From a virus (lineage: Duplodnaviria; Caudoviricetes), in the IMG/VR virus record IMGVR_UViG_2841817361_000001, positions 1-64,000 of that record: 64,000 bases of DNA. One strand, 5' to 3'. The notes beneath the pieces are model-generated. The model made no database searches. It saw nothing but the letters and a program-made list of their open reading frames with translations, and was not told the origin of the DNA. Below are positions 3,861 through 64,000 of this stretch, one piece after another; within the stretch, counting starts at the first letter, position 1; each line of letters starts with the position of its first letter. Position numbers and translations under genes: made by a program.

Positions 3861-4187
3861 ATTGTACAAAAATCCAAATGGATTACCTATTGACGGTCAT
3901 ATATTTCTGATCGGCAAAGAATACTTCTATGCCATTATTGACCAAGAATGGTACAAATTAGAAGCTACAACATTCCAAAAAGCTTTAAAAGAAGTTCAAT
4001 TAAAAGAAAAACAACTTAAAACAATTACAAAATGAAAACAAACTTAGACAACATTCAGACAGTTATAATTTATAATAAAGCTGGTATGGTAAAACATAGG
4101 TTTACTCCAAGTTCATTAAGTATACAAACTCATAATGATAAAAGTAAAACCTTAGCCATTAAAGAAGTTGATTTTAAAAGTTAGACC

Positions 4188-10126: not shown

Positions 10127-10201
10127 AACTTTGGTTTGCTAGAAACAAAAATCCCTGTCAAATTAATGACAAGGATTAAACACCTCATTTTGTTTTTATG
10201 G

Positions 10202-11684: not shown

Positions 11685-11686
11685 GG

Positions 11687-12097: not shown

Positions 12098-12309
12098 TAT
12101 ATTTATATTATCTGCTTATTATTCTGGTCTGTTTTTATCTTTCCAAGCAATTTCTCTATATGGTATTAATTCTGGACGTTTATCAATATATTCCCAATCT
12201 GCTTTTATCATAGGATTTAAACCTCTTTTTATTACGTATTGTTCATTTTCTAGTATTGTTAAAATTATATTCTTACTTGATGTTTCTATTGAAATATATT
12301 TAATCATTA

Positions 12310-17762: not shown

Positions 17763-18332
17763 ATGGCAAAAAGACAATCTTTTACAGAACAAGCTAAAAG
17801 TGAAATGCCCTCTTTTATTAAGAAGGCAATAGATGACTTGTTGGATGTAATGGACAGCAATATTGTTTATCCTAAAAACAAGAATGGACAGGTTTTAGAA
17901 AATAAACTCCTAACTATTGTCAAAGCTAGGGAGGATGTTTACAATGAACTATGTGGATTAATGGATCTAATCAGTATTGATCAATCTTCTGACTCAAAAT
18001 ACAAATCAAAAATTATAAAGGGTTTAAAAACAACTTGGCATGAATTAACAAGAATTACATGTAGGAGTATTGGTGGTGAAAGTTCTGTTGACTTTACTAA
18101 TTATACCCAATATGATGATCCTGAAGAAGATTTAGAATGTTATGGTTCACGTCAGTTAACATCTGATGATAATCTTTCATCAATTGCAAAATCAAAAGGG
18201 CTTTCAGCTAGAGTTGCAACTAAAATAATCGAACGAATAGAATTACTAGAAGATAAGGAATCAGTACAAAGGCAAAAGATTGAAAATAAGAAAATAGGAG
18301 GAATACCAGAACGTTTTGCAAAAGTTAGATAA
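17763..18332 (+). CDS. Putative terminase small subunit
   Basis: Helical 189-aa protein overlapping the large terminase start; call based on position. Confidence 0.45.
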   Translation: MAKRQSFTEQAKSEMPSFIKKAIDDLLDVMDSNIVYPKNKNGQVLENKLLTIVKAREDVYNELCGLMDLISIDQSSDSKYKSKIIKGLKTTWHELTRITCRSIGGESSVDFTNYTQYDDPEEDLECYGSRQLTSDDNLSSIAKSKGLSARVATKIIERIELLEDKESVQRQKIENKKIGGIPERFAKVR

Positions 18333-38176: not shown

Positions 38177-38581
38177 TTATATGAATTTGGTTATTAGTTC
38201 TGATACTTTATCTGAGGTTTCGGTATATCCTAAATTCTTGAAATCATTTATCAATAACTTATTATCAGTCCATGTAATAACATGGGTAAAACCTAATCCT
38301 CTACTATACGAAGATAAATCAGCAATGAATTTTTCTCTTGTTTGCTTAGGTAACTTATTCTTATAATTTGGATTCCGGGTAATAAAACCTATCATCGCCA
38401 TTTTAGAATTACTACACCATACAAATCCCATATATATTCCTTCTTTTGTAAACGCATGTTGAAGTACTAAGCCAGTATCAGGATACATACCTTCATCTAA
38501 CTTATTTAGTTTCCACTGTTCTAACCAATTATTTACAACCGGAATATCAACAGATTCAATTTCTCTTAGTTCTAATTCCAT
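38177..38581 (-). CDS. GNAT-like protein
   Basis: 134 aa; LREI...; GFTHV...LGY; sits where podoviruses usually carry one, between nozzle and ejection genes. Confidence 0.5.
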   Translation of the reverse strand: MELELREIESVDIPVVNNWLEQWKLNKLDEGMYPDTGLVLQHAFTKEGIYMGFVWCSNSKMAMIGFITRNPNYKNKLPKQTREKFIADLSSYSRGLGFTHVITWTDNKLLINDFKNLGYTETSDKVSELITKFI

Positions 38582-41500: not shown

Positions 41501-42132
41501 TAATCTCCATCTTTGTATTTATATCTGTAAGCAAACGCAACAAATCGGTCTTTATCAACGTCACTTACGGTATTACTATTTTTACTCTTATTTTTTATTA
41601 TAGGAGCATCATATGGAGGTTTCTTGATTAAGGTAATATCATCAATCGTAAAACCATTATAATAATCTTCTAATCGGCTTAAATTTATTACTCTTGGGTA
41701 TTCCCAAACTTCATTACTAAAAATGAGTAAATCGCCAATTTGATTAATGCTTAATAAGAATTTTAAAGGGAAAATTTCAGCTCCTTCTTTCCAACGAATT
41801 AGATCAAATCTTAGAACTTGAGTATCTTCAATAATTAATCTACTGTTACCTGAAATAATATCATATTCAATAATCTTACTCAATCCGGTTTTAGCAGCTA
41901 AGAAATAAAATAATTTATCATTAAAGCCTTTATAAGATCCTATTAAAACCATTTCTTCATTAGAAAAATCACTAATTTTCAAAGATGATTTTATTGACTT
42001 AAAAGCTCCGTTATCTCCTTCGCCTGATAAACGCAAATTCTCGGCTCTTACATAGCCTTTGTTATCAGTAAAAGTAGGATGAATATCACTATCCATCCTA
42101 CCTTGTGTAAAAATATTTTGTATTGTTGGCAT
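38581..42132 (-). CDS. Tail nozzle/stabilization protein (crAss muzzle / P22 gp10-like)
   Basis: IFTQGRMDSD, FAYRYKYKDG..T..S, GNRLVY.NY, YGISYNPES, YFTD and MRGKW motifs. Confidence 0.8.
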   Translation of the reverse strand: MPTIQNIFTQGRMDSDIHPTFTDNKGYVRAENLRLSGEGDNGAFKSIKSSLKISDFSNEEMVLIGSYKGFNDKLFYFLAAKTGLSKIIEYDIISGNSRLIIEDTQVLRFDLIRWKEGAEIFPLKFLLSINQIGDLLIFSNEVWEYPRVINLSRLEDYYNGFTIDDITLIKKPPYDAPIIKNKSKNSNTVSDVDKDRFVAFAYRYKYKDGDYTPLSFYSDCSFETDGAFEVDEDRLNKAMVNKFNKLQLSINSGGHNVTDVEVYAREQLSNTAYRIYNVNKKKASINDDSEIFVDYSYSSNYEVLTDEETKYLYSNMPRFPKSQELVGNRLVYYNYKEDRDLKGINGDDIDVYFYVGVKNTPYSSSIKNNTVVSLFKYKIGVIFYNDYNERTSILLPQNENVSEATIGFEDKNTINSLFVKMVSDAPSWATKAKFAVLSQKLNYENIYITYARKVGNKIFLSITGDNINRIRKDDVIIRTDSSVYKEYKVSEVQQYGIKDGVIRDGVYAVIEVDDSFTITKNGEDIPIISESGWRTIDAVQQSTNPKRYDATSFYSGQIGSIIYNSTNNRADFLKSDYGVIKEGDLFSFSINFHYGRTGDEYGSINVSEQIFATKEYPSIYELLIDNLKSPYLTVYGNNTLNEVSLFTNSLFPDYVKEQIPRMYNWAVNSTAVPPEYAEVKVRSEVKLQRGIIPISFRTKNKEELNNIYYPTYKTYKVEDGNIIPDRIEAGMPTFDIEFYNGYCWGNGIESYKIKDQFNGKKLENSFHPNSVLLRGYKEIHRKNDISYGGIFNYELGINNLPVFNSTLANWKTLPIKYGEGQRIISTDSDLVVFNPNKIFRVLFGKSVILDLRGNESLATTNDVLGDIIELDYDYGISYNPESIAVNSNILYFTDKNKTRILALSGNQIVEVNGQNCGVFKETIDLLKSSSTFIGTYDEAHDEYVLGFDNKLTYSFNQNYKGFSHIMTYNFDYLHGTNGKLFQSYKGVLYEAEKGNDYSIFANQGTKTGKLKYYVNIEMNTDIIYQAHSLQSNVPWNTSFKTNLTESTVPESNYKYKESFYYTEIYRDTIGINNAKGVGEISHVNGNEVTFNYMPDGINVGDDLNIEGNISSAITNINGNTITVSNNTGFIIGQFAFTTPQRTLEYNPNGSPMRGKWLEVELSKTSNEYVYIASTTTEVKKSYL

Positions 42133-44732: not shown

Positions 44733-46103
44733 TTAGTTAATACCTACGATGAATTTTTCTGGGAAGAAGATTACTGGTGCAAACTTGTTCACATATTCAA
44801 TTTTGAACTTGTCACAATTTGCAATTCCATTATCAACTCTTAGGTTTTTATAAACTTTTCTTTCGTTTCCGAACCATGCAACGTTAGCATAACCAACTTC
44901 AAATGATTGACCTCCTACAGTTCTTTTTAATTTACCCATTGGAGTAATTAAGAAGTTGTATTTTTTAGCAAGGTTTAGTGAAGCATGTTTACCTGTAAAT
45001 GCATTCCATTTAGTAAAAATCAACTTAACTCCATTTACATCAATTCCTTTGTATCCTAGATACATAAGATCATTTTGATGATTTACAAACGGGTCCCACT
45101 GATAATTAGTTCTTGGAAGCAAATCCATTAATGCAGTATATTGTTCCGGAGTACAGTGAAGTGCTGCTTCATACACTCCTTCTTTTTCAAGTAAAGCTGC
45201 TATATCAGATAAATCAGAGATTGCACTGATTTTACCCTGGAATTTAGTTGCTCTGTTATCTAAGATTTGGAAGATACCCATAGTTCCTCTTGGTGAACCT
45301 TTTGCTGTTGCCTGAGCTGCTGTAAGTCTTCTTGCAAAAGCAAGTGCATTATCAGTCATATCAGATAGTTCAGTCATCTTTCTATCAAGATTAGTATCTA
45401 ACCAATATTCACCATCTTTGGTTTTATATGGTTCATAAGATCCACCTCCAGTTGCAATGACTTCTTCATCACACCATTCAAGGCAAACACCTGTTTTAAA
45501 GAAAGACTGTTCTCTTGCTGGAGAGTAATCTTTATACCCAATACATGGTGGACATTCACAATGATCTAAATTGTAACCTGTGAAAATAATTTCAAGATCA
45601 GCTGAAGCAATATCCCAGTCAGTATCTGTATCAACTCTATCGGCTGTAATTACTGTACTGTCAGCATTAATTGCTGTAATCTTACCGTAGTTCATTTTAC
45701 CAGTTGCATCAATAGCCGTGAATTCCATTCCTACTTCAACAATGAACTGTAATTTAGTAGGTCTACTAGAATCAAAGTCATACGGATCAGAAGGTATTTT
45801 AGTAGCATCAATAGTAAAATCCTTATCTGTTCTTTTTACTACTCTTCCGGTTATTGATAAAGGAATATTAGTTCCTTCTGATTCATTATATCTGAACTGA
45901 TCACTTGCTACAGTGATTTCATTTCCTTGTGCTAATAAGAAACCTAAGTAGGTATTTTTAGCGATTTCTGGCAACACTACTTCACCAATATATTCTGGTG
46001 CTGTAGCTGCTGCAATTTCCATAGAAGACACTAGAGGTTTTCTTCCTCCTGTACTCTTCTGTAAAAGATACTGTTTATCTACTGTTGGATTTACGATTGG
46101 CAT
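44733..46103 (-). CDS. Major capsid protein
   Basis: 456 aa; downstream of an acidic scaffold-like gene; RGTMGIFQIL motif; followed by a hairpin. Confidence 0.7.
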   Translation of the reverse strand: MPIVNPTVDKQYLLQKSTGGRKPLVSSMEIAAATAPEYIGEVVLPEIAKNTYLGFLLAQGNEITVASDQFRYNESEGTNIPLSITGRVVKRTDKDFTIDATKIPSDPYDFDSSRPTKLQFIVEVGMEFTAIDATGKMNYGKITAINADSTVITADRVDTDTDWDIASADLEIIFTGYNLDHCECPPCIGYKDYSPAREQSFFKTGVCLEWCDEEVIATGGGSYEPYKTKDGEYWLDTNLDRKMTELSDMTDNALAFARRLTAAQATAKGSPRGTMGIFQILDNRATKFQGKISAISDLSDIAALLEKEGVYEAALHCTPEQYTALMDLLPRTNYQWDPFVNHQNDLMYLGYKGIDVNGVKLIFTKWNAFTGKHASLNLAKKYNFLITPMGKLKRTVGGQSFEVGYANVAWFGNERKVYKNLRVDNGIANCDKFKIEYVNKFAPVIFFPEKFIVGIN

Positions 46104-49905: not shown

Positions 49906-50550
49906 ATGAATTCTAACTTCAGTCGTAAGATATGGTGGAAAATACAACGACATAATAACGGAATTGAAAAAAAGAAATTTGAAGTTGTTAATAAAAATGG
50001 TGTTAAGAAATACAATTTTCTTATTGGTGAAAGCGAACAAGTTAAAAACATCATTAATGAAAGACTTAACGAACTTGGATGGACGTTTCCTTACTTTCAA
50101 AGTCAGATGTATAAAAAATATCGGACACTAAAAAAAGATAGTGAAAGGTATTTAAAAGGAGAAATATCAATACCATTATTTGAATTCTTTAATATGATGA
50201 AAGTTTTAAACATAGAAATTTCCCTAAAACCAAAAGATAACTTATTCACTTCATCCTATGAAAGGGGTATAGTTATTATTAACCGGAACTACTTTCCACG
50301 CTTTTATTTATCATTTCCATTAAAAAAAGTAACAGAATTCCATATACACTTTCAAGATAATTTAGAAGATAATATAAAAAACAAATCGCTTGAATATTAC
50401 ACTGTAATGCATGAAGCTATACGCTGGTATTTCACTGGCAAAAAGAATGTATACAAGCCTATGGAACTTAAAAGAGAATTTATGAAACAATATTTCAAGA
50501 ATGATCAAAATATATTATTTGATACAAAAGAAATTGACAGAACAAAATAA
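49906..50550 (+). CDS. Hypothetical protein, possibly with an HTH
   Basis: YLKGEISIPLFEFFNMMKVLNI resembles the end of an XRE domain. Confidence 0.4.
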   Translation: MNSNFSRKIWWKIQRHNNGIEKKKFEVVNKNGVKKYNFLIGESEQVKNIINERLNELGWTFPYFQSQMYKKYRTLKKDSERYLKGEISIPLFEFFNMMKVLNIEISLKPKDNLFTSSYERGIVIINRNYFPRFYLSFPLKKVTEFHIHFQDNLEDNIKNKSLEYYTVMHEAIRWYFTGKKNVYKPMELKREFMKQYFKNDQNILFDTKEIDRTK

Positions 50551-50561
50551 AATATTACAAA

Positions 50562-51017
50562 ATGAAACAACTAAAGATTGAAATTCCAGAAGGATTTAAA
50601 GTAGATGAATTTAATCCAGAATCAGGTATTATTAAATTCAAACCTATACCACAGAACATTAAGGATAGAATTAAAACACTGGATGATGTTTATAACTATC
50701 ATGACATAGATAAAGATGAATTTAATAGAAGTTTCAAATCATGTACAGAAGATGAAATTGCATACAAACACTTGAAATTAATAACATCAGCTCTAAATGA
50801 AGGCTGGGAGCCAGATTGGGGGAATGGACAATGGGATAAGTGGTTCAACTGGTTCAATATGCCATCGAAAAATGGCCGGTTCTCGTTCGACGGCTCCTAT
50901 GGTCGGAGCTCGTGTTCGGCTTGCGCTGCCCGCCTTTGCTTTAAATCAAAAGACCTTGCTGAGTATGCTGCAAAGCAATTTTTAGAGGTATATGAGAAAT
51001 ATATGGTTATTAAGTAA
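50562..51017 (+). CDS. DGR target protein 1 (remote target)
   Basis: Contains VR1; paralog of the 62815 and 63312 genes (ALNEGW.PDW, ARLCFKS). Confidence 0.9.
   Translation: MKQLKIEIPEGFKVDEFNPESGIIKFKPIPQNIKDRIKTLDDVYNYHDIDKDEFNRSFKSCTEDEIAYKHLKLITSALNEGWEPDWGNGQWDKWFNWFNMPSKNGRFSFDGSYGRSSCSACAARLCFKSKDLAEYAAKQFLEVYEKYMVIK
50873..50938 (+). repeat. DGR variable repeat VR1
   Basis: 18 mismatches to TR 63724-63789, all at TR adenines. Confidence 0.95.
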
Positions 51018-51254
51018 AATCTTAGTTTTATGAAGCATGTATTATACATAGTGATTTGTTTAGCAGGAATAATTTCATTAATAAATTTTTTGGAATCAAA
51101 ATCTAATAAAGTAAAAAGTGCAAAACTTCAATGTGAATTAGGAATGAATCTATACAAACTAGAAATAACTAAATATAAAGGAAATTTTAAAAAGTCAGAT
51201 TCAGCATATAATTCAGATATAGATAGAATACTAAATGATATTTATAAAAAATAA

Positions 51255-51656
51255 ATGAATCCAATAGTAACATTTGACTTCGACAAGACTTTATCCAGAA
51301 CAGATGTTCAACAATACGCTAAACAACTTATTAAAAGAAATATAATAGTTTGGGTTGTTACAGCTAGATATGATGAACTCCATAAACATAGATGGATCAT
51401 TAATCCATGCAATGAAGATCTACATAAAGTTATTGAAGAAGTTGGAATACCAAGACATCAAGTTAGGTTCCAATGTATGACACCAAAGTCAGATTACTTA
51501 AAACATACAAAAGTACTTTGGCACTTAGATGATAATGAAGATGAACTATACAGTATTAAAATTAATAGTGATGTAAATCCGATTGATGTTAATTTTTCAA
51601 CTTGGAAAGAAGAGTGCGAAGCTTTATTGGAAAAATATTTAAAACAAATCAAATAA
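51255..51656 (+). CDS. HAD-superfamily hydrolase
   Basis: TFDFDKTL, VVTAR, K, HLDD motifs. Confidence 0.8.
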   Translation: MNPIVTFDFDKTLSRTDVQQYAKQLIKRNIIVWVVTARYDELHKHRWIINPCNEDLHKVIEEVGIPRHQVRFQCMTPKSDYLKHTKVLWHLDDNEDELYSIKINSDVNPIDVNFSTWKEECEALLEKYLKQIK

Positions 51657-51913
51657 TTATGCAAAGACTGCTAACATTTATCTACGGAATATTTTGGCTT
51701 ATCATAGGTTCTATTTTATGTCCGTCAAAAAAAGAATTACTAGAGAATTTTAATGTATATGTAGTTATATATTTAATATTAACCTTGTATTCTTTTATTA
51801 AAGGCTTTAAAAAAATGGATAAAGCAACTGAATGATATTACTACTAGTTGGGTTCACAGTTCTAATGATAACACTAGGATACTTAAAGCACAAATACAGA
51901 AAATACTAATTAA

Positions 51914-52360
51914 ATGTTTGATAAAAGTTCGCATTTTTATACAAACATATACCAATGAAATGGTGATGTTAATGTAAAAGAATACAAGGCTCCAACAGAT
52001 GAAAGTATCAGAATACTTAATGAATTTGAGAAAAAATCTGAGGAGAATATTGTAAATAAAATTAATGTTAAAATATCAACTATTGATACAGTTCATATTG
52101 GATTCTCACATGATCCATGTCTTTATGGAATAAACCATTTTGTCAAGTTTAATTTAAATGGAGAAGAACACAAACTTAAATATAATGTTGAATATGAAGA
52201 ATATGATAACAATAAATGCTTTGGAATTCCATTTAATATAGCTGAACATCTAATTGAATATATGTCAAGAGCAATTGCAAAAGAAGTATTACTTAAAGGA
52301 TATCCTAATGAAGTAATAAAGTCATATGAAAAACATTTAAACAGACAAGGAAATTATTAA
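51914..52360 (+). pseudogene. 148-codon ORF interrupted by one in-frame TGA at 51956-51958
   Basis: Manual translation: MFDKSSHFYTNIYQ*NGDVNVKEYKAPTDESIRILNE...RQGNY*; ends 2 nt before the next ATG. Confidence 0.7.
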
Positions 52361-52362
52361 CC

Positions 52363-52758
52363 ATGAGAATAATTGTAGCAGGATCAAGAGAATTTAACGA
52401 CTACGAATTTCTTAAAAGTAAGTTAGATGAAATTGTAGCAGATGAAAATAATGTAGAGATAGTTTGTGGAATGTCAAAAGGTGCAGATTTATTAGGTAAA
52501 CAATATGGAGAAGAAAGAAACTTTTGCGTTCACGAATATCCTGCTGAATGGAATAACATAGAAGACAAACATCCAGGAGAAATTAAATCTAATAAAAATG
52601 GTAGATACTGGATAAGGGCTGGAATAGTTAGAAATGAAACTATGGCACAGAATGCAGATATGTTAGTAGCATTTAGAGTTAACAAATCTTCTGGAACTTC
52701 CAACTTGATTGAATTAGCTAAAAAGTATAAACTGAAAACAATTGTAATAGATATTTAA
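52363..52758 (+). CDS. SLOG family (DUF2493/YspA-like) protein
   Basis: IIVAGSR, IVCGMSKGAD, AGIVRN..MA and SSGT motifs. Confidence 0.85.
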   Translation: MRIIVAGSREFNDYEFLKSKLDEIVADENNVEIVCGMSKGADLLGKQYGEERNFCVHEYPAEWNNIEDKHPGEIKSNKNGRYWIRAGIVRNETMAQNADMLVAFRVNKSSGTSNLIELAKKYKLKTIVIDI

Positions 52759-52761
52759 TAA

Positions 52762-53205
52762 ATGAAAATATTAGCCTTAGACATTGCTACTACAACAGGA
52801 TATTCATCATCATCAGGAGAATCAGGAACTTTTAATTGCTCTTTCAAAAAAGGAGAATCAGGATCTATAAGATTACTCCGATTCAGAAATAAAGTTACTG
52901 AACTATTAGACTTAATAAAACCAGACATTGTTGCCTATGAAAGATCAGCCGGAAGAAATACCCACTCAATTAAAACACAATCTGAAATGATTGGAGTATT
53001 AACTTTAATGCTGGAAGATAGAAATATTCATTATGCTTCTTACTCCCCTTCTGAGGTTAAGAAATTTTTTACAGGTAAAGGAAATGCCTCCAAAGAATAT
53101 ATGATTAAAACGGCTAAAAAAAAGTATCCTGAAATTGAGATAATAGATGACAATCATTCAGATGCATTGGCAATTTTAGAACTAGCTCAGTCTGATTTGT
53201 TGTAG
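52762..53205 (+). CDS. ruvC: RuvC-like Holliday junction resolvase
   Basis: ILALDIATTTG, AYE, VKKFFTGKGNASK, DNHSDALAI. Confidence 0.85.
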   Translation: MKILALDIATTTGYSSSSGESGTFNCSFKKGESGSIRLLRFRNKVTELLDLIKPDIVAYERSAGRNTHSIKTQSEMIGVLTLMLEDRNIHYASYSPSEVKKFFTGKGNASKEYMIKTAKKKYPEIEIIDDNHSDALAILELAQSDLL

Positions 53206-53616
53206 CGAACCATCAGTTGCGTTCACCAACCATATCTTAGTAACACACAAAAGCCCATGATATGGTAATTGAAAAAGGCATTATTATCCCAGCCTTCCTA
53301 TTAGAAGAAGAGTTTGAACTAGATAATATCAATGAAGAAGAAGATGAATTTGAAGATGATATTGAAAAGCTAGTTAAAAACTCACTAAATGAAAAACCGG
53401 AAGAAAAAATTCCATTCTTTCAATCAGAATTAATAAACATTCTTTTCTACGATATTTCAAATATAACTCCAGCTTCAGATAAATACTATGGTGATAATTG
53501 CAGCATTATTTTATCTGGTGGAAAAGAATACTTCACAAACTTACCAATAGAAAGTATTCAAAATAAAATATATAACCTAAAACGAGAAGAAAACCTTTTA
53601 TATATATCTAATTGAA

Positions 53617-53920
53617 ATGAATAAATTCCTATTACTGCTTATACCTATTCTACTAATAAGTTGCAATGAACAACCTTTTACAGGCTATTGTGTTGGTAAG
53701 AAAAAAAACTGAAGGTCATCTAAGTGATCAAGAGGGAAGAATTATAAAATATGCTGTAATTGTCCCTCATGTACCAATGATTAGAAAGTCAAAACCAACT
53801 TGGGTTAAAACATCTTATCAAGTAGCAATTGCAAACTATGATACACATAAAATAAAGAATGTAGATTCAATTACCTTCTTTAGAATGAAACTTGGTGAAA
53901 AGTATACTTTTAAAAACTAA
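53617..53920 (+). pseudogene. Lipoprotein gene frameshifted at an A8 tract (53701-53708)
   Basis: MNKFLLLLIPILLISC signal stops at TGA right after A8; removing one A fuses it to the 53666-53920 frame. Confidence 0.65.
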
Positions 53921-54157
53921 ACTATGACAGATAAAAAAGCAAAGGAAATTGGGTTCACTCATAAAGGCAGAATGTATGGTGTACCAATTTATTTTTTCAA
54001 TAATGGAGATTATCACATACATTCTAAAAACTTTTTATGGAGTATTTATTTAGATATGCTAATATTCTTAGACATAAAAGTATTCAAAATAAATGACTCA
54101 TTTGAGATTGATTATGTACATAAATTAGATTAATAATTCCCGTTTACAAAATAAGAT

Positions 54158-54628
54158 ATGTCAGACAGATTTAAATACATACAAGATTATGCAGCTAATA
54201 ATCCAAGACTATGTTATAGTGCATTAGAATTTTTACTAGGAGACTATATTGGACAAGGCTGTTCAAGAACCGTTTTCAAGTATGCTTTAGATCCTAAATA
54301 TGTTGTTAAAATAGCAAAATCCGGAAGTTTTGATAATATACTTGAATATGAAATCTGGTGTAACATTAGATATACTGATCATAAAAAATATTTTGCCCCA
54401 TGCTCATGGATTAGTGATGATGGAGTTATAATGCTTCAAAGAAAAACAAAACCTATCTATACACTTCCTGAAACTCTACCTTCATATTTCAGTGATATAA
54501 AACCAGATAACTTTGGAATGATTGGTAAACAAATAGTTGCACATGATTACGCTTTCAGTTTAGACCGATTTATAGCACTAACTAATTTAAATAAAACCAG
54601 AAAAGTAAAATCAATATATTCAAAATGA
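54158..54628 (+). CDS. Minimal protein-kinase-like protein
   Basis: IGQGCSRTVF Gly loop, VVKIA, E, SDIKPDNFG catalytic loop, HDY. Confidence 0.7.
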   Translation: MSDRFKYIQDYAANNPRLCYSALEFLLGDYIGQGCSRTVFKYALDPKYVVKIAKSGSFDNILEYEIWCNIRYTDHKKYFAPCSWISDDGVIMLQRKTKPIYTLPETLPSYFSDIKPDNFGMIGKQIVAHDYAFSLDRFIALTNLNKTRKVKSIYSK

Positions 54629-56692
54629 AACACCTCCTATCAATACCAAAAGAATTCAAACAAATGCATATCGATAAATTCAAACAATACTTGGATGAAG
54701 GTTATGAAATTATCGAAGAAACACAAGTAAATGATTTCAAGTGCTACGTGTTTGAAAAGAAATTTGAATCTGTTGTTGACCAACTAAAAAATGAAATGAT
54801 GTCAAAACGAATTTTATCAAGATTCGTTTACTAATCAAAATTTACAGAAGTATAAGGTTACACCAGCAAATGAAAAAGATTTAAAAGTTAGCCCTTTTAT
54901 ATTTGATGAGATTGGTCAATATCCATATAACCAAACACAACTTACTCCAAGAACTTATACAGATTCAGAATTAGCACTTAGTGTATCAGTTGAAATGTTC
55001 CAGTTAATAAAAGATAGAATAGCAAATGGAAAATAACTTAGAAAACAAATCAATGTTTTTCGCTCAATACTATGGGCAAAATGTAAAAAGAAGTTATTTA
55101 CCTGAGCAAACTTCATTACAGGTAATTGACAGAGAAGTTTTTTGGATAGGACATTTAATAATAAATGGATACTTTAGAACTAAATATGAAGAAGCTTTAA
55201 AAAATCTAACAAACTTTGATGAAGATTACTTCAACGATGAAAACAGAATAAAACTTTATGTATTACTTTCATCATTACAGAACAAAGAAATAATGTCACA
55301 TCTCCAAGACATCTATACCATAAGCCAACAAATACCACCTTCAGAATATCAAGTTATTGAAATGATAAATGAACTACTAGATCAAGGTGTTGAATTTTAG
55401 GCTTAAATAAGATGATTAAATCAATTTAAAAGTGAAATCCATATAAATTGTCACAATAATTATTTTGATTGATTTATAACGCCTTAAAATTATTAGAAGA
55501 TGAAAGTAACAATCATTAGTCTTTTTATATTGAAAATTAACGAATGATAGAGTTGAATGTCCAGTATATTTTGAGAGGGGGAGAAAAAAAATTGAGATAA
55601 AACATGAAAAAAAACAACCCGGCACCTTGTAAATAGGCAAATGATTTTCTGATTTCAAACTCGATTTTATACAGATCATAATACTATTGGATAAGTAATT
55701 CAATTAAACATATTGCCATACAAAAGGATGTCTAAATCATTCTTAACAAAAGGTTGGAATATGTAGGTAGTAATGGGTATATAAAAATATTTTTCTGGTA
55801 AAAATTAGTTGCGTCTTCTTTATGGAGACGGTACACTAAATATAATCGCTAAGGGTATATAAATTATTTAATTAATAATACAGCCTCGGGAAAACAAAGA
55901 CATAGTTAAATATAATTATAGGTTTACATAAATAATTAATACCATATACCGTATAATATTGAATATTCAATATTTAATATTTCAGGAATCAATAATGCGT
56001 TTACTTTAATTTGAAATAGTATTATATATTATTCAATAAACACGCCTATAAAATATCAATAATAACATGGTTACATTACATTTCTTGATAACTGCATGTA
56101 TTTTATCGAACACTCTATTGCATTATTCGCAAAAGCTAACGGAAAAGTATTAGTTCAAAAACTATAATAAATACTATATTTTTAGAATATTTACTAGATT
56201 AAATAGAATGTAAGGTTAAATAAGTGTTATATATATAATATAGTGAATAAACGGCTTAAATTCAGGTTTAAATGATTAATGTAATATAGTAAGATTGAAA
56301 ATAAATATTATTGCTTGTATAGTGGTTAAATAAGCTTATAGTGTTAATTAGTATGTGTTATGATGATTAAGTACTCTAATAATATTATTTATTGACGTTA
56401 TTTGTTATTGTGTTTTAATTATTATACTGGTTTATGCCCTTCGGGCTTTCTTAACTCTTTCTACTTATATATTACTCTTATTCTCTTAGTGTGGTTTCCC
56501 TCTGTTAGTAAACGCAAAAGATTCTAATTTACTATTAATAAAAAATCCCTAACATTTAAGCTGGGGATTTCTTTTGGTATTTACTTACAACTTATTATAT
56601 TTACTTTAGGTTATCCTAATTGTGTCAACGGTGAAATGAAGAAGCACCGAAAATGACACGGTGATGGTTGTCATTATTAAACTTGTAACATC

Positions 56693-56794
56693 ATGGCGGC
56701 AAAACCTAAAAACAAGTTCGTTAAAGTAAATAAACCAACCAAGGATGGTAGAACTTACTTTTTCAGAAGTAAACCTAAAAGCTGTAATAAGTAA
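56693..56794 (+). CDS. Small basic ORF (33 aa)
   Basis: MAAKPKNKFVKVNKPTKDGRTYFFRSKPKSCNK, followed by a hairpin and T-tract. Confidence 0.5.
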   Translation: MAAKPKNKFVKVNKPTKDGRTYFFRSKPKSCNK

Positions 56795-56966
56795 TTAGGC
56801 TGCAACCAGGAGTTAATTCTTCTGGTTGTTTTTGTTATATACAAATATAGTGTATTTAGTATTATAGTTTTGTCTGCTGGTGTTGGCTTTTATTTGTAAA
56901 CGCAAATTCTTCTATTTGGCACATCATTTGAAAAATAATTATATATTTACTACTTAAATCAAAATC

Positions 56967-57377
56967 ATGAAATATTATAAACATTTACTCATTCTTTCAT
57001 TTGTATTTTTTGCGTTTACTACCTTATTTTCTTGCAGTAGTAATAGAGATGATAATAATAATGTAAACAATAGATCTGTTGACATAGTTACATACACTGA
57101 GTTACCAGATAAACCCTATTTACTTTTAGGTAAAGATTTTTCTATTGAAACAAAAGGAAAATGGGAGAAAAAAGGCATTCTTTTAGGCAATAATGTAGAC
57201 CCATTTAACTTACAGGTCCGTTATCCTAATGGTAATTTAAATGCTGATTATGTTATTATATTAGAGATGTACGAAAATGGTAAACAGATTTATAGAATTG
57301 GCGGAAAAGGAAAAATAGATCTAGAATTAAAAGAAGGTAATATTAGTCTTAAGTCTAATTATATTTTACCAAAATAG
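56967..57377 (+). CDS. Lipoprotein (moron-like)
   Basis: Signal peptide with lipobox LFSC followed by SSNRDD. Confidence 0.75.
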   Translation: MKYYKHLLILSFVFFAFTTLFSCSSNRDDNNNVNNRSVDIVTYTELPDKPYLLLGKDFSIETKGKWEKKGILLGNNVDPFNLQVRYPNGNLNADYVIILEMYENGKQIYRIGGKGKIDLELKEGNISLKSNYILPK

Positions 57378-57394
57378 ATTAACACTATTAAACC

Positions 57395-57733
57395 CTATTC
57401 TTTTTCTTCCTTGATATCATCTATCTGATTTTTAATGTTCTCATTTTCATATTCTAAATCATCTATTCTATCAGAATTGTCATCATATTTATAATTAGGT
57501 ATGTTAGGTTGAGTATTATTATCCTCTAAATCTAAAATTTTATTTTCCAACTCTTCAACACGATCATTTAGATCATCCACTTGATCATTTAGTTGAATAG
57601 TATTTTTTATTAGCTTCTTAATAATATCTTCATCTCTAATATGTTTCTTTGGAAATATTAATTTTGTTGATCCATAATAAGCAAATGAAATATAAGCTAT
57701 AAAAACTAATGATATAAAAATACTCTTTTTCAT
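57395..57733 (-). CDS. Membrane-anchored coiled-coil protein
   Basis: N-terminal TM segment, heptad repeats. Confidence 0.6.
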   Translation of the reverse strand: MKKSIFISLVFIAYISFAYYGSTKLIFPKKHIRDEDIIKKLIKNTIQLNDQVDDLNDRVEELENKILDLEDNNTQPNIPNYKYDDNSDRIDDLEYENENIKNQIDDIKEEKE

Positions 57734-57936
57734 CTTCTTGGAGCTCTTCTAGTATAAGGTTGAACATAAGTTCCATTTTTTCTATAATACCCTTTAACAT
57801 GAACTGTTCCAGAACTATATCCACTAGAATACCCAGAACTAGGATAACTTGAATTATAATATACATCATTATTATAGCTGCCACATGAAGCAAAAACAAT
57901 AAATACGATAAAAAGTAAAAGTTTTTTCATAAACAT
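57730..57936 (-). CDS. Small lipoprotein
   Basis: FASC lipobox; VHVKGYYRKNGTYVQPYTR motif. Confidence 0.7.
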   Translation of the reverse strand: MFMKKLLLFIVFIVFASCGSYNNDVYYNSSYPSSGYSSGYSSGTVHVKGYYRKNGTYVQPYTRRAPRR

Positions 57937-58490
57937 TATTTTACATAATCTTTAGCAAGATAATTTAAAAATTCCCTAAACTCTTTAAATGTGCTTTGTT
58001 TTTTAAACATTTCTGTTATCCTTTTTTCAGAATACAAAGTATTATTTACTAAAAAATTCATTAAATCGTCAAAAGCTACAAACTTGTAATTTTCTTTTGT
58101 AATATATATTTTGTTTTCCTCTATATCATCTAATAATAATTTATAATAACGTGAAAGATTTTCTTCATATTCATTCATAGTATTTTCAATTTTTCCACAC
58201 CATATTATACGTTTACTTTCTTCTTCAATCCTTGGAATCATTTCTATATTACTCTCAATAGCTTTAAGTTCAATTTTATTATTATCATTTATGAAATTCT
58301 TCCTATAGATCCACTTATTAGATAAATTAATAGTATTAATAGAATTGACTTTTGCTTCAATTTTTCTAGTTTCCTGCTTAAGGATATTTAATCTTGAATA
58401 TAAAGTTTCCATTTTTTTTGTCCCCTCCAATGTTTGACTATATAATATTGAATTAAACAATAAAAAAACTACCTTAATAAGCTTGATCAT
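57936..58490 (-). CDS. Secreted hypothetical protein
   Basis: Signal peptide ending YSQ. Confidence 0.55.
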   Translation of the reverse strand: MIKLIKVVFLLFNSILYSQTLEGTKKMETLYSRLNILKQETRKIEAKVNSINTINLSNKWIYRKNFINDNNKIELKAIESNIEMIPRIEEESKRIIWCGKIENTMNEYEENLSRYYKLLLDDIEENKIYITKENYKFVAFDDLMNFLVNNTLYSEKRITEMFKKQSTFKEFREFLNYLAKDYVK

Positions 58491-58589
58491 AAAATTTATT
58501 TTAGCTAAAATTAACTTTTAACTCCTTATGTAATTTAAAATTTAACATACTTTAACATTAATATATGTTGTACAAATAAAAAACATACG

Positions 58590-58790
58590 TAAATTTGTCA
58601 TGTTCACATCATCGCTATAGGTATTTATGCTTATAGCACCAAAATTTAAAGTATAAAAATATTAAGCCTCGGAGGTGTCGTATAGTCGTAAGGCTATACA
58701 CTTCAATGCGTAAGCGATGATGTGAACAGCACCCACCCGGGGCGTTTTATGTTTAAATAATTTTAAATTTAAATATTATGTTCACATCAA
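58590..58790 (+). ncRNA. Structured C4-like antisense leader RNA with its own promoter
   Basis: TAAATTTG at 58590; 16-nt box 58601-58616 is the exact complement of 58713-58728; the box core recurs at the start codon (58778-58789). Confidence 0.65.
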
Positions 58791-59434
58791 ATTCAAGCAC
58801 AGACAGTGCGCAATTAAAAGACAATGCAACGAATAACAGTAGTTCATTGCAATTCACAAAAGATCAGTATGATGTTTTTTCTAAGATTCTTTATGATACT
58901 ATATCATTGAAAAGGATTAGTAAACTGATTGCTATTGACCCTATAAACGGGATCGATACTATTTCACTGCTTTTAAATGTTAAAATAGGATCTAAATTAC
59001 ATCAAAAATTTAATGACGCTTTAACTAATCATTACTTTCAGGTAACAGATTATGCCGTTGCAACTATTATTTGCGAGATAGAAAGTTTATTTATAAACGC
59101 AAAATCTCCAAAAATACCACCTACTAAATTTACAAATCCAGTAAAAAGAAAAATTCCCATAATAACTAGGAAGAAAATTAAACCTAAAAAGGAAGCAGTT
59201 AAACCCGTAATAGAAATAAATCACGAATTAATTACAGCTTCCGGTATTGCCGAACTATTAAATATATCTAAAGCTTCAGTTTACAAATATTATAGAGATA
59301 AATTAAAAGTAATTGCTGTAAGTAATGATAGCAGAACTTTATTTTTCAGTAAAAAAGATGTTTTAAAGCTTCATAAGGAAAGAAAAACTAAAAAGCCTAT
59401 AAATATCAGCTTAAATAAAAATTACTACTTCTAA
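58778..59434 (+). CDS. Regulatory protein with a C-terminal excisionase/MerR-type HTH
   Basis: LITASGIAELLNISKASVYKY...FFSKKDV. Confidence 0.65.
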   Translation: MFTSNSSTDSAQLKDNATNNSSSLQFTKDQYDVFSKILYDTISLKRISKLIAIDPINGIDTISLLLNVKIGSKLHQKFNDALTNHYFQVTDYAVATIICEIESLFINAKSPKIPPTKFTNPVKRKIPIITRKKIKPKKEAVKPVIEINHELITASGIAELLNISKASVYKYYRDKLKVIAVSNDSRTLFFSKKDVLKLHKERKTKKPINISLNKNYYF

Positions 59435-59471
59435 CCTATTATTTAAATAAGCTTATTACATAACAACTACT

Positions 59472-59504
59472 AAGAGTTTTCCAAAACGGAGGCTCTTTTT
59501 TTTT
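59472..59504 (+). terminator. Rho-independent terminator
   Basis: aagagtttttcc-like arm / ggaggctctt arm followed by a T run. Confidence 0.7.
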
Positions 59505-59644
59505 GCTTTACAAGTAAATAAAATTACTTTTTACAACAATAAACAAACGTTAAAAGTTAAATTTTGATTATTGATTTTCAATTACTTACATAATTCATAT
59601 ACTTTTTATGTAATTTATATTTGCATTTAATGTAATTAATTGTA

Positions 59645-59652
59645 TACATTTG
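59645..59652 (+). promoter_or_regulatory. Bacteroidota -7 promoter element (TACATTTG) for the early operon
   Basis: TAnnTTTG with an upstream TTTG. Confidence 0.6.
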
Positions 59653-61770
59653 TAACAGATAAGAGAAGACGAAACAAACATTACTTTAAAATTTAAGATT
59701 TGAACCAACCTGAGCAAGTTGTTAAAAGGCTTTCTTTAAGATAACTAAACAATTATAAAATGAAAACAACTACCCTAACAGAAGAACAAAAAGCAGATAT
59801 AGTAACAATTACTTTTTTATCTATTGGAGTAATACTATTAATATCCTTCTTTGCTTTTATCATTCCTAATATAACATTAGATCAACAGGTTGAAGATTAT
59901 AAACGCAATATGCAGCAAAAGGAAATTAAAGAAGCTCATGACTTTCATGAAAAAATGATGCTTGAAGAAAATAAAAAATACATTTCAAATCATTGATTTA
60001 TTAACTCGACTAAGCGAGTATAAAAAGGTTTCAAGCTTAGAGCGTTGATAGGGATAAAAACCTATCAGGTAACAACAACTAAAAAATATTACAAAATGAA
60101 AACTAACAAATACACATACTTAAAAGTAATTCAACAGAATTTAAGTGGTAAATGGAAGGATATAGAAGAAGTGGAAGCGAATAGTATATATATTCCTAAA
60201 TGCGGAGAAAGTATTTTTAAAACGCTTCTTTCTGGTTATAAATTATTGGGAGTAAGCACTAAAACAATTAACAGAAGGGTTATAAACGAAAAAACTTCAT
60301 TAAGACAAAATTTTAAAGACTGTGATGATTTTGCAAACTATGTTTTAGATAGTGTTTTAGATTATGGTGAAATCATTAGTAATGAATTTAATCAATTAAC
60401 TGGATTAAATATAAAAGTTGGTTCAGACATTAATACAATTGAATCATTGCCTTGTCTGGGGATAAATTACATTGAATTAGGTTCTGTAAAATCTATGCTT
60501 TATGATCTGTATTACTTCTTAATCAAAGAAAATAAAATAAACACACTTAACTAAAAATCACAAATAATGAAACCATTTGAATACAAAAATAAATATGGAT
60601 CTTTAAAATTAATACCTGTTAGCGATCTAATGAAAGTAAGCAACATTAAAGGGGTCGATATTGATAAAAAATACAAATTTGATATAAATACAGCTGAAAA
60701 AGTTGCTTTAATAACTGAAAATTATGACACTCAAATGTCATTCGGATTTCCTATTACAAACCAAGCTTATATAATTAAACATGAATCTTCTTCAACTGGT
60801 TATATATGTGAATTATCAGATCTAAATTTTAATAAGGAAGTAAACGCAACGAACGAAATTTTACAAAGAAATAAATATAGTTCCATTCTAATTTAAATAA
60901 AACAAATCATGTTTGAAGAAAAAATAATTGCATGCACAACGTATGTAACAGGTATTGCCTTGCTTTTTAATCCGGCTCCTGAGCTTAAATATATAGGAGG
61001 AATTATTACAGTTACTTTAATGGTTGTAGGTATTCCAGTAGTGTATGAACTAGCTAAAACCTTTGTTAGTAAACGCAAAAGATTAAAAAATGCAAAATAA
61101 TATTTCACTAATAGCATATTACAACGGAGATATTGACAAAATGATACAAATATTAATTCATTTGAAATAAAAAATATGAATATCAATGGAACAAAAGAAA
61201 TTATAATTGATGAAAGTTCAATATTCAAACCAACATCAGGATATGTTAGTGTTAAATTAACCAACTTAGAAGGCTGGCCAGTTGCTACAGTTTATGGAGA
61301 AAATTTTGAAACATTAAAGGCAAACGCAGTTTTATTCTCCAAAGCTCCGGAAATGCTTGAAATTTTAAGTAGAGTATTAGATTGTCAAGCACAGGCTCAT
61401 ACTCTTCCTTCATGGCTAAATGAGGAAATAGAAAACCTAATAAAAGAAGCAACAGAATGAAAATATTTTTACTCCTGTCAATTTTTGCAGTATTAGCAAT
61501 AATATCACTTTTCATAGTTAAGCCTTACAATTTAATAATAAGAATGTTAAATAAATAATATCCCAATGAACACCATTTTAAAAATATTCAGAAAGAAAAT
61601 ACAGGAAGAAATACAACCCTGTGGAGTAATTCAAATCGGAAAATATCCGGAAAATTACAATGATCTAGGCACAAAATTCATGTCTCATCAAAGAAACATT
61701 CGTGCAAGGGCATAGGTAAAAAAATAACAAGTAAAAAAAACAAAGCTCCCCGAAGGAAGCTTATTACAAA

Positions 61771-62808
61771 ATGAAAACAACCATTTATGGAAGTCTTCAA
61801 AACAACTATAACAAAGATATGAATTATTTAGAATTAAAACAAGACACTACCCTTTCTCATAATTCAGAAATGCAATATTTCAATTCATTTTTCCAGGACC
61901 TTTTAAAAGGGTTACAGAGTGGTAAATATATTACAGACAAGGGGACTAAATATTCTCTCACGACAATAAGACATTATAAAAATGCTTATGACTGGTTTGT
62001 TTTTTGGGAAGCTCACATTGGTATTCAATTACAAATGAATGAGGTAATATATAATACTGTTGAAATGTTTAAAACGTTTCTTAGCAATTATCATCTTACA
62101 TTAAATAGTGTATCAGTTATTATCTCTAAAATTAAATCTGTGCTAAACTTTGCTTTTAAGTCGGGCAAGCATTTTTGGAATGGTACAGGAATAAAGATAG
62201 TGAAGGAAAAAAATCCAAAAACGTATTTAACAATTGAAGAATTAAAGCAAATGCGTTCATGTAAATTTTTAACTGCTGCTGAAGAAATGGTTTTAGACAA
62301 TTTTACAATTCAGTTTTATATTGGTCAAAGGTATGAAACAACACAAAGATTCTTAAAGCAACCTTTTGCATTCACAAGACAACATGGAGAATTCTCATAT
62401 ATAGAAATTGAAGCATATAAAACAGGAAATGTATCATATATTCCATTAGGTGAAATTGTAAAGGGTATTATCCAAAAATATAATGGTTTAGTTCCTGTAT
62501 ATTCCAGAACTTACATTAATCGCATAATTAAAGTAGTTGCGTTTAAAGCAGGATTAATTCAATTAATTGCAACTCGTGAAACACGTAATCAAAAAGTTGT
62601 TAGAGAATTTATTCCAAAGTATTCTCTTATATCTACACACACTGCAAGAAGGTCCTTAGTATCAAATCTTAAACAATTAAATTTTTCAAATCAATCAATA
62701 ATGGGAATTACATCTCATGGTACAGAAGTACAATTAAATGACTATAACAGATCACAAGTAGAAAAAATAAAATCAATATTAGGTCACGAATTTTTTAACA
62801 AAATATAA
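61771..62808 (+). CDS. int: Tyrosine recombinase/integrase
   Basis: SAM-like N-terminal domain; GQR, KTG, HTARRS, TSH and Y catalytic residues. Confidence 0.9.
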   Translation: MKTTIYGSLQNNYNKDMNYLELKQDTTLSHNSEMQYFNSFFQDLLKGLQSGKYITDKGTKYSLTTIRHYKNAYDWFVFWEAHIGIQLQMNEVIYNTVEMFKTFLSNYHLTLNSVSVIISKIKSVLNFAFKSGKHFWNGTGIKIVKEKNPKTYLTIEELKQMRSCKFLTAAEEMVLDNFTIQFYIGQRYETTQRFLKQPFAFTRQHGEFSYIEIEAYKTGNVSYIPLGEIVKGIIQKYNGLVPVYSRTYINRIIKVVAFKAGLIQLIATRETRNQKVVREFIPKYSLISTHTARRSLVSNLKQLNFSNQSIMGITSHGTEVQLNDYNRSQVEKIKSILGHEFFNKI

Positions 62809-62814
62809 AATCTC

Positions 62815-63300
62815 ATGAAGAATTTAGAAATCACTCAAGAAGCAGCCGTAAAAGCATACTCTGAAGCTTCAAAAAATGGAAAACTATTACTAGAAAATCT
62901 TTTCGGAAAAAAGGTATTTCTTGTAGATATTAAAGAAAGAATAAAATCTATTGAAGACGCAATTAATGAACTTGGAGAAAATGATGATGAAGTAATTGTA
63001 TTAAGAGCCTTAGAAGTAGCAGGTATTAATAATCATATTTTATATACTCAATGGCTAGTAGTTATTACCAAAGCTCTAAATGAAGGCTGGGAGCCAGATT
63101 GGGGGAATGGACAATGGGATAAGTGGTTCAACTGGTTCAATATGCCATCGAAAAATGGCCGGTTCTCGTTCTTCGGCTCCTATTATCGGAGCTCGTTTTC
63201 GCTTTGCTCTGCCCGCCTTTGCTTTAAATCAAAAGAACTTGCTGAGCACGCTGCTAATCAATTCTTAGAGGTGTATGAGAAATCTTATACTAATCAATAA
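62815..63300 (+). CDS. DGR target protein 2
   Basis: Contains VR2. Confidence 0.92.
   Translation: MKNLEITQEAAVKAYSEASKNGKLLLENLFGKKVFLVDIKERIKSIEDAINELGENDDEVIVLRALEVAGINNHILYTQWLVVITKALNEGWEPDWGNGQWDKWFNWFNMPSKNGRFSFFGSYYRSSFSLCSARLCFKSKELAEHAANQFLEVYEKSYTNQ
63156..63221 (+). repeat. DGR variable repeat VR2
   Basis: 18 mismatches to TR, all at TR adenines. Confidence 0.95.
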
Positions 63301-63311
63301 AACTAATTTAA

Positions 63312-63683
63312 ATGAATGTAACAGATAAAGTAAAAAGTTTTGAAGATGCGTGTCAATTATTAGGACTAAAACCTGATGTTCCAAAAGTATCATTATTACC
63401 AGAAAAATACCAAAAATCTATAGTAGCACATTATAAATTGATAATTATTACTGAAGCATTAAATGAAGGCTGGACAGCTGATTGGAGTAATTGGAATGAA
63501 AGAAAATATTATCCTTGGTTTGAAATGAGTGATTCTTCTGGCCGGTTCTCGTTCGGCAGCTCCGATTATCTGTGCTCGAATTCGGATTGCGCTGCCCGCC
63601 TTTGTTTAAAAACACGGGATTTAGCAAATTACATAGGTGAATCGTTCATTGATTTATATAAAGATTATTTCATAATAGATTAA
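63312..63683 (+). CDS. DGR target protein 3
   Basis: Contains VR3; immediately upstream of TR. Confidence 0.92.
   Translation: MNVTDKVKSFEDACQLLGLKPDVPKVSLLPEKYQKSIVAHYKLIIITEALNEGWTADWSNWNERKYYPWFEMSDSSGRFSFGSSDYLCSNSDCAARLCLKTRDLANYIGESFIDLYKDYFIID
63532..63607 (+). repeat. DGR variable repeat VR3
   Basis: 15 mismatches over 76 nt to TR, all at TR adenines. Confidence 0.95.
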
Positions 63684-63716
63684 ATTCTTAAGGTTGTACA
63701 GTTTCATGTTGCTCTT

Positions 63717-63792
63717 ATTCTTCTAGCCAGTTCTCGTTCAACAACTCCAATAATCAGAACTCGAATTCGAATTGCACTACCCACCTATGTTT
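63717..63792 (+). repeat. DGR template repeat (TR)
   Basis: Non-coding AAC/AAT-rich copy: agc cag ttc tcg ttc aac aac tcc aat aat cag aac tcg aat tcg aat tgc act acc cac cta. Confidence 0.95.
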
Positions 63793-63894
63793 TTAATATA
63801 AAAACTGTAAACCTTACCTCTTGGTAAAAAATAATTCACTTTCATAAAGGCGTTGGTAAGTATTACTGAAAACGACTTTTCTAAAGCAAAGATT

Positions 63895-64000
63895 ATGAAA
63901 AGAATAAACAATTTATTTGAAAAAATAATTTGCATTGACAATGTAAAACAAGCAGATATAAATGCTCAAAAAGGAAAAAGCAAACAATATGGTGTAAAAC
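63895..64000 (+). CDS. DGR reverse transcriptase, N-terminus only (cut off by the window end)
   Basis: MKRINNLFEKIICIDNVKQADINAQKGKSKQYGVK matches the usual DGR RT start (MKR..NL.EKI....N...A...A.KGK); about 100 nt after TR; catalytic motifs are not in the window. Confidence 0.8.
   Translation, partial: MKRINNLFEKIICIDNVKQADINAQKGKSKQYGVK

Follow-up and report, generated by a model that had tools for sequence, protein, structure and literature searches.

A diversity-generating retroelement with small, soluble, early-region targets in a Bacteroidota prophage

Most targets of phage diversity-generating retroelements (DGRs) are reported as tail proteins by Roux 2021 (PMC8144416). There and in the 2024 preprint of Macadangdang et al., the variable repeats (VRs) are described as C-terminal parts of C-type-lectin domains, with tail proteins as the main proteins retargeted by phage DGRs; the Bacteroides survey in the preprint gives VRs as uniformly C-terminal and lectin-like, with 98.1% of variable proteins in five domain groups. 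Wu 2018 (PMC5758913) documented multiple and non-adjacent targets inside one prophage, and two-target gut-phage DGRs with the lectin-like DUF6273 were described by Baykov 2023 (PMC10743442) and in a preprint (10.1101/2024.10.15.618418). A non-structural phage DGR target is already published in kind by Benler et al. 2021 (PMC8008677), who place such a target of Quimbyvirus in a defence-related island and propose phage-host conflict. Here we describe a DGR in IMG/VR record IMGVR_UViG_2841817361_000001, which is 75,214 nt long and classed as a provirus. The window is the 64,000-nt stretch at positions 1 to 64,000 of this record; the rest of the record was analysed too. The element is a genuine DGR of a widespread, essentially undescribed Bacteroidota-phage lineage with small, soluble, tandem early-region targets.

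The cassette is arranged in the order tandem small targets, template repeat (TR), RT-17 RNA, reverse transcriptase (RT) gene and small basic open reading frame (ORF), with a further target 12.8 kb upstream. The TR (63725-63792, plus strand) is a non-coding stretch of 68 nt with 21 adenines, located in the spacer between target gene 3 and the RT gene. As a preliminary description of this DNA had claimed, it aligns without gaps to three VRs, all on the plus strand: VR1 (50874-50941), VR2 (63157-63224) and VR3 (63540-63607). VR1 and VR2 each carry 19 mismatches, 18 of them at TR adenines (46 of the 47 non-A positions agree in VR1), and all 15 mismatches of VR3 are at TR adenines. The sole non-adenine mismatch is T63790 of the TR, which is C in both VR1 and VR2; the earlier statement that every mismatch falls at a TR adenine (18, 18 and 15) holds true within the 66-nt span to which it referred. 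The three VR peptides read then agree with our reading. As for coordinates, the earlier VR3 is in register with its TR start at 63717, whereas VR1 and VR2 had been placed 1 nt off and fail to align when these offsets are taken literally. The hypergeometric probability that mismatches would be so confined to adenines is about 1e-10 for VR3 and about 2e-12 for VR1 and VR2. A scan blind to adenines, run on both strands of the whole record, found only four places, the TR and its three VRs, which agree at 46-47 of 47 non-A positions, while the background reaches 24/47 at most. There is therefore no VR in the tail or spike genes, as had been noted from the window, nor in any gene of the record besides the three targets.

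Read in the frame of the targets, the TR contains 7 AAY codons plus CAG and ACT, from which each VR could take about 2.7e9 peptide sequences with no stop codon arising. At the 3' edge, the TR adenines 63779, 63783 and 63787 show the identical substitution across all three VRs. The same edge stands out in 62 related loci, where the last 16 nt contain 192 fixed versus 75 variable adenine differences and the remainder 202 versus 632, with the qualification that at two VRs per locus some of the fixed differences are expected by chance. These fixed 3'-edge differences between TR and VR may represent an asymmetry like that of the initiation of mutagenic homing (IMH) element against IMH*. No significant hairpin was found downstream of the VRs (z-scores +1.4, +0.6 and -0.5).

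The RT gene occupies record positions 63895-64857 on the plus strand and runs past the window end at 64000. An RT-like ORF had been seen to start at 63895, and a YxDD motif was anticipated in it; the full record shows a complete RT of 320 aa with YADD. The protein matches RVT_1 of Pfam (8.5e-20) and phrog_1423 'Reverse transcriptase' (9.1e-118), and its translation carries both YADD and IGNYLSQ. These two motifs are hallmarks of DGR RTs. Searches with tblastn (E<=1e-20) recovered 94 phage records, including 5 Bordetella phages and crAss-like DGR RTs; the closest annotated RTs are those of crAss-like phages, at about 55% identity.

Natural variation at the VRs was compared over positions 50400-64000 using assembled contigs from four public runs (X2, X3, X11 and X14) of four studies. 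All distinct variant sites inside the three VRs, 29 of 29, are TR-adenine positions, and no difference is listed for the TR in any run. Over 60093-64000, X11 has 18 other letters, every one within VR2 and VR3, and the VR2 and VR3 variants of X14 are identical to them. X2 has 9 other letters over 62702-64000, every one within VR2, and X3 has 8, every one within VR1 and at TR-adenine positions. VR2 thus has 14 distinct variant sites (X2, X11 and X14) and VR3 has 7 (X11 and X14), all at TR adenines. Outside the VRs, X11 and X14 have five other letters at 56896-57021, in a variable island described below, of which 57021 is also found in X3. The contigs of X3 break off to either side of VR1 and of VR2; this could at most hint at mixed variants. 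Annotated proteins display a similar pattern: in each of eight close homologs of target 2 (82-94% identical), 7-9 of the 9 VR-variable residues differ, and the closest (P0001) differs at 9/9 of these residues and at 0/152 of the others.

The expectation that VR variation would be specific to adenine positions is borne out by this comparison between copies. Since the data are assembled contigs, they show diversification between prophage copies and not within one population, and this is what may be said for regarding the repeats as ordinary paralog similarity or as a dead DGR relic without present activity. Such an explanation is hardly credible: such adenine specificity would arise by chance with a probability of 1e-10 to 1e-12, the ORF of the RT is both conserved and intact, and the VRs of otherwise identical prophage copies, with about 3.9 kb of identical flank, differ solely at TR-adenine sites. 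The DGR is almost certainly real and active.

A structured RNA, RT-17 (Rfam RF03020), was identified at 63810-63893 on the plus strand, between TR and RT (42.3 bits against a gathering threshold of 40.4, E 3.5e-6). According to Weinberg et al. [quoted passage not shown] At the gathering threshold RT-17 is found directly 5' of the RT in 4 of 13 related viral loci, and this recurrence suggests that RT-17 is the spacer RNA of the DGR lineage. Overlapping the RT stop codon is an ORF for a basic protein of 98 aa (record 64844-65140). Members of its family, 104 aa long and with a pI of 9.0 at the median, follow the RT in 60 related viral loci; overlap with the RT stop was seen in most of 61 loci, and the ORF mostly starts 13-16 nt ahead of that stop. 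No Pfam, NCBIfam, PADLOC or PDB sequence match was obtained for it. Among the nearby ORFs there is also no Avd-like Pfam, NCBIfam or PDB sequence match; Avd is not universal, since it is present in 74% of DGRs by the count of Wu 2018. The basic ORF is a candidate non-Avd accessory factor of this lineage.

The three target genes are all on the plus strand and all match phrog_11581. Target gene 1 (50562-51017; 151 aa; E 9.6e-17) is the one located 12.8 kb upstream of the TR, target gene 2 (62815-63300) encodes 161 aa (E 3.7e-24), and target gene 3 (63312-63683; E 1e-26) encodes 123 aa and is the minimal form of the family. The proteins are acidic, with pI 5.0-6.2, and possess no hydrophobic segment (maximum 19-residue Kyte-Doolittle score 1.08), signal peptide or transmembrane (TM) segment, in agreement with the size range of 123-161 aa and the lack of signal peptides first ascribed to them. 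The unannotated phrog_11581 is their sole match, with no family found in Pfam, NCBIfam or PADLOC. They have a common core and differ in their N-terminal extensions. The VR is internal rather than at the extreme C-terminus, a departure from the C-type-lectin type; in all three targets, and likewise across the family, 24-27 coding residues predicted to form two helices come after it.

A profile search of 1.84 billion cluster representatives yielded 4139 matches at E<=0.001 and 2642 at E<=1e-10. The best 150 matches are mostly 150-165 aa long, and some of 250-350 aa with two matched stretches appear to be tandem fusions. All are stand-alone or tandem small proteins and not C-terminal domains of long fibre-like proteins, and no fused longer form was found at E<=0.001 in a search limited to longer proteins, which is weak evidence. 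In the family consensus, a Trp-rich stretch precedes the VR, whose scaffold positions (Ser, Cys and Arg-Leu-Cys) are conserved, and two helices come last; the unconserved positions coincide with the adenine-bearing codons of the TR. Target 2 has 176 homologs in Elizabethkingia, Chryseobacterium and relatives.

Relatives are encoded by 473 confirmed stretches of viral contigs, and the locus counts that follow concern the best 80 of these. A homologous RT (53-88% identity) lies directly downstream on the same strand in 69 of the 80 loci. In 67 of the 68 loci with both an RT and an upstream target, an adenine-biased TR/VR pair was found with its TR in the spacer, a TR being called at >=90% non-A identity and >=5 adenine mismatches; the target counts of this survey are inflated by overlapping alternative-frame ORFs, and the per-locus figure alone is used. 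Among bacterial contigs, taken from one genome per species, 191 stretches encode a relative. The 80 kept for analysis come nearly all from Bacteroidota, of the orders Flavobacteriales, Chitinophagales, Sphingobacteriales, Cytophagales and Bacteroidales, and an RT is located within 4 kb in 53 of them, several of the others being cut by contig ends. The cassette type is thus conserved and widespread, and normally has multiple tandem small targets.

The fold of the family was predicted for two of the targets. An AlphaFold2 model of target 3 (123 aa), built with 150 diverse relatives, reached pLDDT 88.5 and pTM 0.85. It consists of short N-terminal helices, a long helix (31-51), a beta-hairpin (65-71/80-87) and two C-terminal helices (102-120). 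The VR corresponds to residues 77-98, that is, the second strand and the next loop, where confidence is lower. The AlphaFold2 model of the 161-aa target 2 is similar and weaker in the VR. Nothing rose above noise, and hence no C-type-lectin or Ig fold was detected, in Foldseek against PDB, in VIA-align wide or in a PDB sequence-profile search; BFVD returned only uncharacterised phage proteins, and ESM Atlas only unnamed viral clusters. Roux et al. 2021 (PMC8144416) expect uncharacterised VR domains to be new lectin variants, and the present family could be one of these.

The targets lie outside the structural module of the phage. Six ORFs have a head-and-packaging or virion-structural match in PHROG, and four of them are found at 18-46 kb: the large terminase (18316-20553), the portal (20559-22901) and two virion structural proteins on the minus strand (38581-42132 and 44733-46103). 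The targets, a RuvC-like resolvase gene (52762-53205) downstream of target 1 and an excisionase-like gene are all on the plus strand, opposite to the two virion-structural ORFs, and targets 2 and 3 come after the gene of a tyrosine recombinase (61771-62808). The neighbourhood of relatives is of the same kind. The ORFs of the 80 viral loci were clustered and 10 of the most frequent neighbour clusters annotated: eight could be named (MuA-like transposase, MuB-like transposition ATPase, DUF3164, Sak4-like ATPase, YqaJ exonuclease, VRR-NUC, Ant/Bro-N anti-repressor and DUF4494), two have no assigned function, and 0 of the 10 are structural. A family member is located between NinB/Orf and a replisome organiser in Bacteroides phage Versailles, among resolvase, methyltransferase and radical-SAM genes in LoVEphage, and close to genes for primase-polymerase in Dulem virus 41. 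On several unrelated phage backbones, relatives are placed among early, recombination, transposition or DNA-modification genes. The PHROG map and the neighbours put the targets in the early and recombination region, much as the preliminary description had located them in early or integrase regions, and such positions are consistent with early, non-structural expression.

By the BPP-1 paradigm, RNA of the TR and spacer would be reverse-transcribed with misincorporation at adenines, and the resulting cDNA would replace each VR, the direction presumably being set by the fixed 3'-edge differences in the manner of IMH against IMH*. Each event would replace 9 residues of a stretch predicted to form a beta-strand and loop; this stretch adjoins a Trp-rich strand in a domain that is compact, acidic and soluble and has two predicted helices after the VR. 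To judge from gene position, the targets may be non-structural, early-expressed binding proteins rather than the receptor-binding proteins of the phage; within the infected or lysogenic cell, their variable face would keep pace with a changing partner, for example a host defence or a rival phage. The preliminary description had proposed a multi-target DGR acting on three small non-tail paralogs, and TR/VR alignment, RT and scan all uphold it; for the non-virion role attached to it, the support comes from synteny. We lean with moderate confidence towards such a role. The earlier suggestion that they may be intracellular binders for anti-defence or host takeover is a reasonable one with a precedent in kind (Benler et al. 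2021). That the targets act specifically in counter-defence is doubtful: small size, acidic pI, early-region position and tandem paralogs are typical of the anti-defence class without defining it. A broader proposal, also rather unlikely as it stands, is that the family provides a second major DGR scaffold beside the C-type lectin, a compact mixed helix/strand domain of about 90 residues with an internal VR and without recognisable kinship to lectin or Ig folds, serving thousands of Bacteroidota phages as tandem cytoplasmic antibody-like binders that are encoded in early regions, continually renewed against variable host defence proteins or rival phages, and thus used in counter-defence and not in adsorption.

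Several observations weigh against the explanation favoured here. Gene position is weak evidence for a non-structural role, because a DGR cassette needs only one target nearby and small adhesins can be encoded elsewhere. No RT is found in the flank of 11 of the 80 viral and 27 of the 80 bacterial loci, some of them cut by contig ends, and the family thus occurs also without an RT nearby. The GC-rich hairpin that comes after the VR in BPP-1 was not found in the prophage, and no Avd homolog was detected, unlike in BPP-1. The Trp-rich surroundings of the VR would suit sugar binding. A further point comes from phage Versailles (ON453897.1). Its TR of about 106 nt, which separates the RT from an annotated tail protein of 453 aa, has two matching VRs. 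One is in the C-terminus of the tail protein and has 11 mismatches, all at adenines; the other is internal to a 193-aa family member (10181-10762) 44 kb away (profile E 1.9e-8) and has 14 mismatches at adenines. Both VRs have further common 3'-edge differences from the TR, one of them at a non-adenine. In local numbering, the Versailles elements are at 3123-3230 and about 2920-3040 of piece L170 and at about 5370-5480 of piece L168. One TR-encoded peptide thus serves a presumed receptor-binding protein as well as the small scaffold, which fits a common ligand class such as surface glycans. Given this sharing of one TR, the role of the small proteins may be lectin-like, receptor-related or virion-associated.

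A less probable alternative is that the small proteins are part of the virion, as adhesins or accessory receptor-binding subunits docked on fibres or capsid by their differing N-terminal segments, and that the DGR serves tropism, as in BPP-1, through a detached and multiplied module. Besides Versailles, this explanation can draw on the crAss-like phages, which have the nearest annotated RTs and, beside them, a target annotated as tail protein whose end carries a similar '...CGSRL' motif, on the different N-terminal extensions of the three paralogs around their common core, and on the predominance of tail proteins among reported phage DGR targets (Roux 2021). It has to account, however, for the placing of the family in early, recombination and transposition regions of several unrelated backbones with no structural cluster among the 10 annotated neighbours, and for the stand-alone or tandem form of the best 150 profile matches. 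The Versailles tail protein and family member are moreover alike only in 38 TR-derived residues (71% identical). The Versailles record annotates the small ORF itself as 'tail protein', a label that we suspect reflects the common VR; no Pfam match was obtained for the tail protein of Versailles, nor for two family members from Bacteroides.

The surroundings of the targets in the prophage bear on a third explanation. Prophage copies differ at 55164-55171, where the X11 contig has about 4.2 kb of extra sequence, and 336 nt (59756-60093) are absent from X11 and X14. Between these sites are small ORFs with lipoprotein or signal-peptide-like N-termini (56967-58490), and the region looks like a variable moron island. 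Directly 3' of the DGR cassette are a gene (2357-2869) whose product has a signal peptide and weakly matches an outer-membrane beta-barrel (E 0.008), and then one (2944-4458) for a DNA methyltransferase of 504 aa with a DUF4942 domain, both given in the numbering of record position minus 62800; they would be accessory, moron-like cargo adjoining the hypervariable genes. As all three target genes are in a prophage beside this island with its lipoprotein-like morons, and as the non-structural target described by Benler et al. 2021 also sits in a defence-related island, the proteins might be expressed from the prophage in the service of the lysogen, as hypervariable binders, either intracellular or released, against superinfecting phages or other mobile elements, a matter of defence and not counter-defence. 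We consider this improbable; neither the targets nor the post-RT ORF has a PADLOC family, and no effector domain is present.

Other features of the record may be noted briefly. The element is a tailed phage with terminase, portal and virion structural genes, and it also encodes a primase-polymerase (4975-6777, PHROG match). Its host is a member of the Weeksellaceae (Flavobacteriales), because annotated homologs of the targets come from Elizabethkingia, Chryseobacterium, Soonwooa and Cloacibacterium. Within the structural region, a 3457-aa ORF on the minus strand (24069-34442) has no PHROG match at E<=1e-5. The tyrosine recombinase directly 5' of targets 2 and 3 is 345 aa long (SAM-like N-domain, phrog_1) and is preceded by the excisionase-like gene, at 58778-59434. 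A second putative integrase, assigned from reading the ORF list alone, is a 409-aa ORF on the minus strand at the right end of the record (11185-12414 in the numbering of record position minus 62800). Two adjacent direct repeat blocks (244 and 300 nt), 100% identical, occur at about 68403-68941 and about 72640-73181 of the record, 4.24 kb apart. They repeat the first part of an ORF of 134/135 aa and are close to the genes for a cI-like repressor and the terminal integrase; they may have arisen by duplication, be left over from recombination or be an artefact of assembly.

The cassette departs in three ways from the picture drawn by the surveys: its VRs are internal, no lectin fold is recognised in its targets, and these are located among early genes and multiplied in tandem. 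It is also common, with relatives in 473 stretches of viral contigs, 191 of species-representative genomes and 4139 cluster representatives. If the proteins do act inside the cell, programmed hypermutation would be widespread in intracellular phage-host conflict, and the family would provide a binder scaffold that is small, soluble and naturally evolvable. Should they prove to be adhesins, three features would still merit description: the detached mini-module that in Versailles shares one TR with a tail protein, the link of a so far orphan RNA motif (RT-17) to a DGR lineage, and the conserved ORF, distinct from Avd, that follows the RT. No description of the small family, its internal VR, the post-RT ORF or RT-17 as part of a DGR was found in a literature search that did not extend to supplementary tables; the family may be listed as an unnamed cluster among the protein clusters of Roux 2021 or the VR classes of Wu 2018.

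Compared with the known systems, the prophage DGR shares with the tentaclins and the DUF6273 proteins the feeding of more than one target by one TR, two in their case; those targets are described as C-lectin-like, with or without Ig domains, and proposed to be receptor-binding proteins, while the prophage family has no Pfam match. Quimbyvirus, also a Bacteroidota phage, resembles it in having a DGR target encoded away from the structural genes, in an accessory or defence-related neighbourhood; both targets of Quimbyvirus are described as C-type-lectin and one as structural, whereas those of the prophage form one small family, none of them structural and none with a detected lectin fold. Versailles has a member of the same family in a recombination/replication region, with an internal VR matched to the phage TR, but its TR also serves the adjacent tail protein, its member is 44 kb from the RT and has a longer VR, and its RT is 43.7% identical to that of the prophage. 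The crAss-like phage cr55_1 (NC_055869.1) has the closest kind of annotated RT (56% identity), the same order of target, TR and RT, and a small ORF after the RT. Its target is, however, an annotated tail protein of 572 aa with the VR at the extreme C-terminus, for which Pfam gives a sub-threshold head-fibre match only. As a candidate relative of the family, the crAss-like tail protein was rejected, the alignment covering 13 columns only, at the VR end. No family member was found in the cr55_1 genome by profile search, RT-17 was not found in it at the gathering threshold, and the ORF after its RT has no similarity to the post-RT ORF of the prophage. With BPP-1, the prophage has in common an RT-linked, AAY-rich TR that differs adenine-specifically from a VR located in a protein-coding gene, a structured RNA in the TR-RT spacer, and fixed 3'-edge differences between TR and VR that resemble IMH against IMH*. 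In the place of the Avd of BPP-1, it has a conserved basic ORF of about 100 aa overlapping the RT stop; the VR of BPP-1 ends its gene, while those of the prophage are followed by 24-27 coding residues in proteins without a C-type-lectin match. Finally, the mtd-avd-TR-brt cassette of BPP-1 has one tail-fibre target, and the prophage has three small ones, one of them 12.8 kb away.

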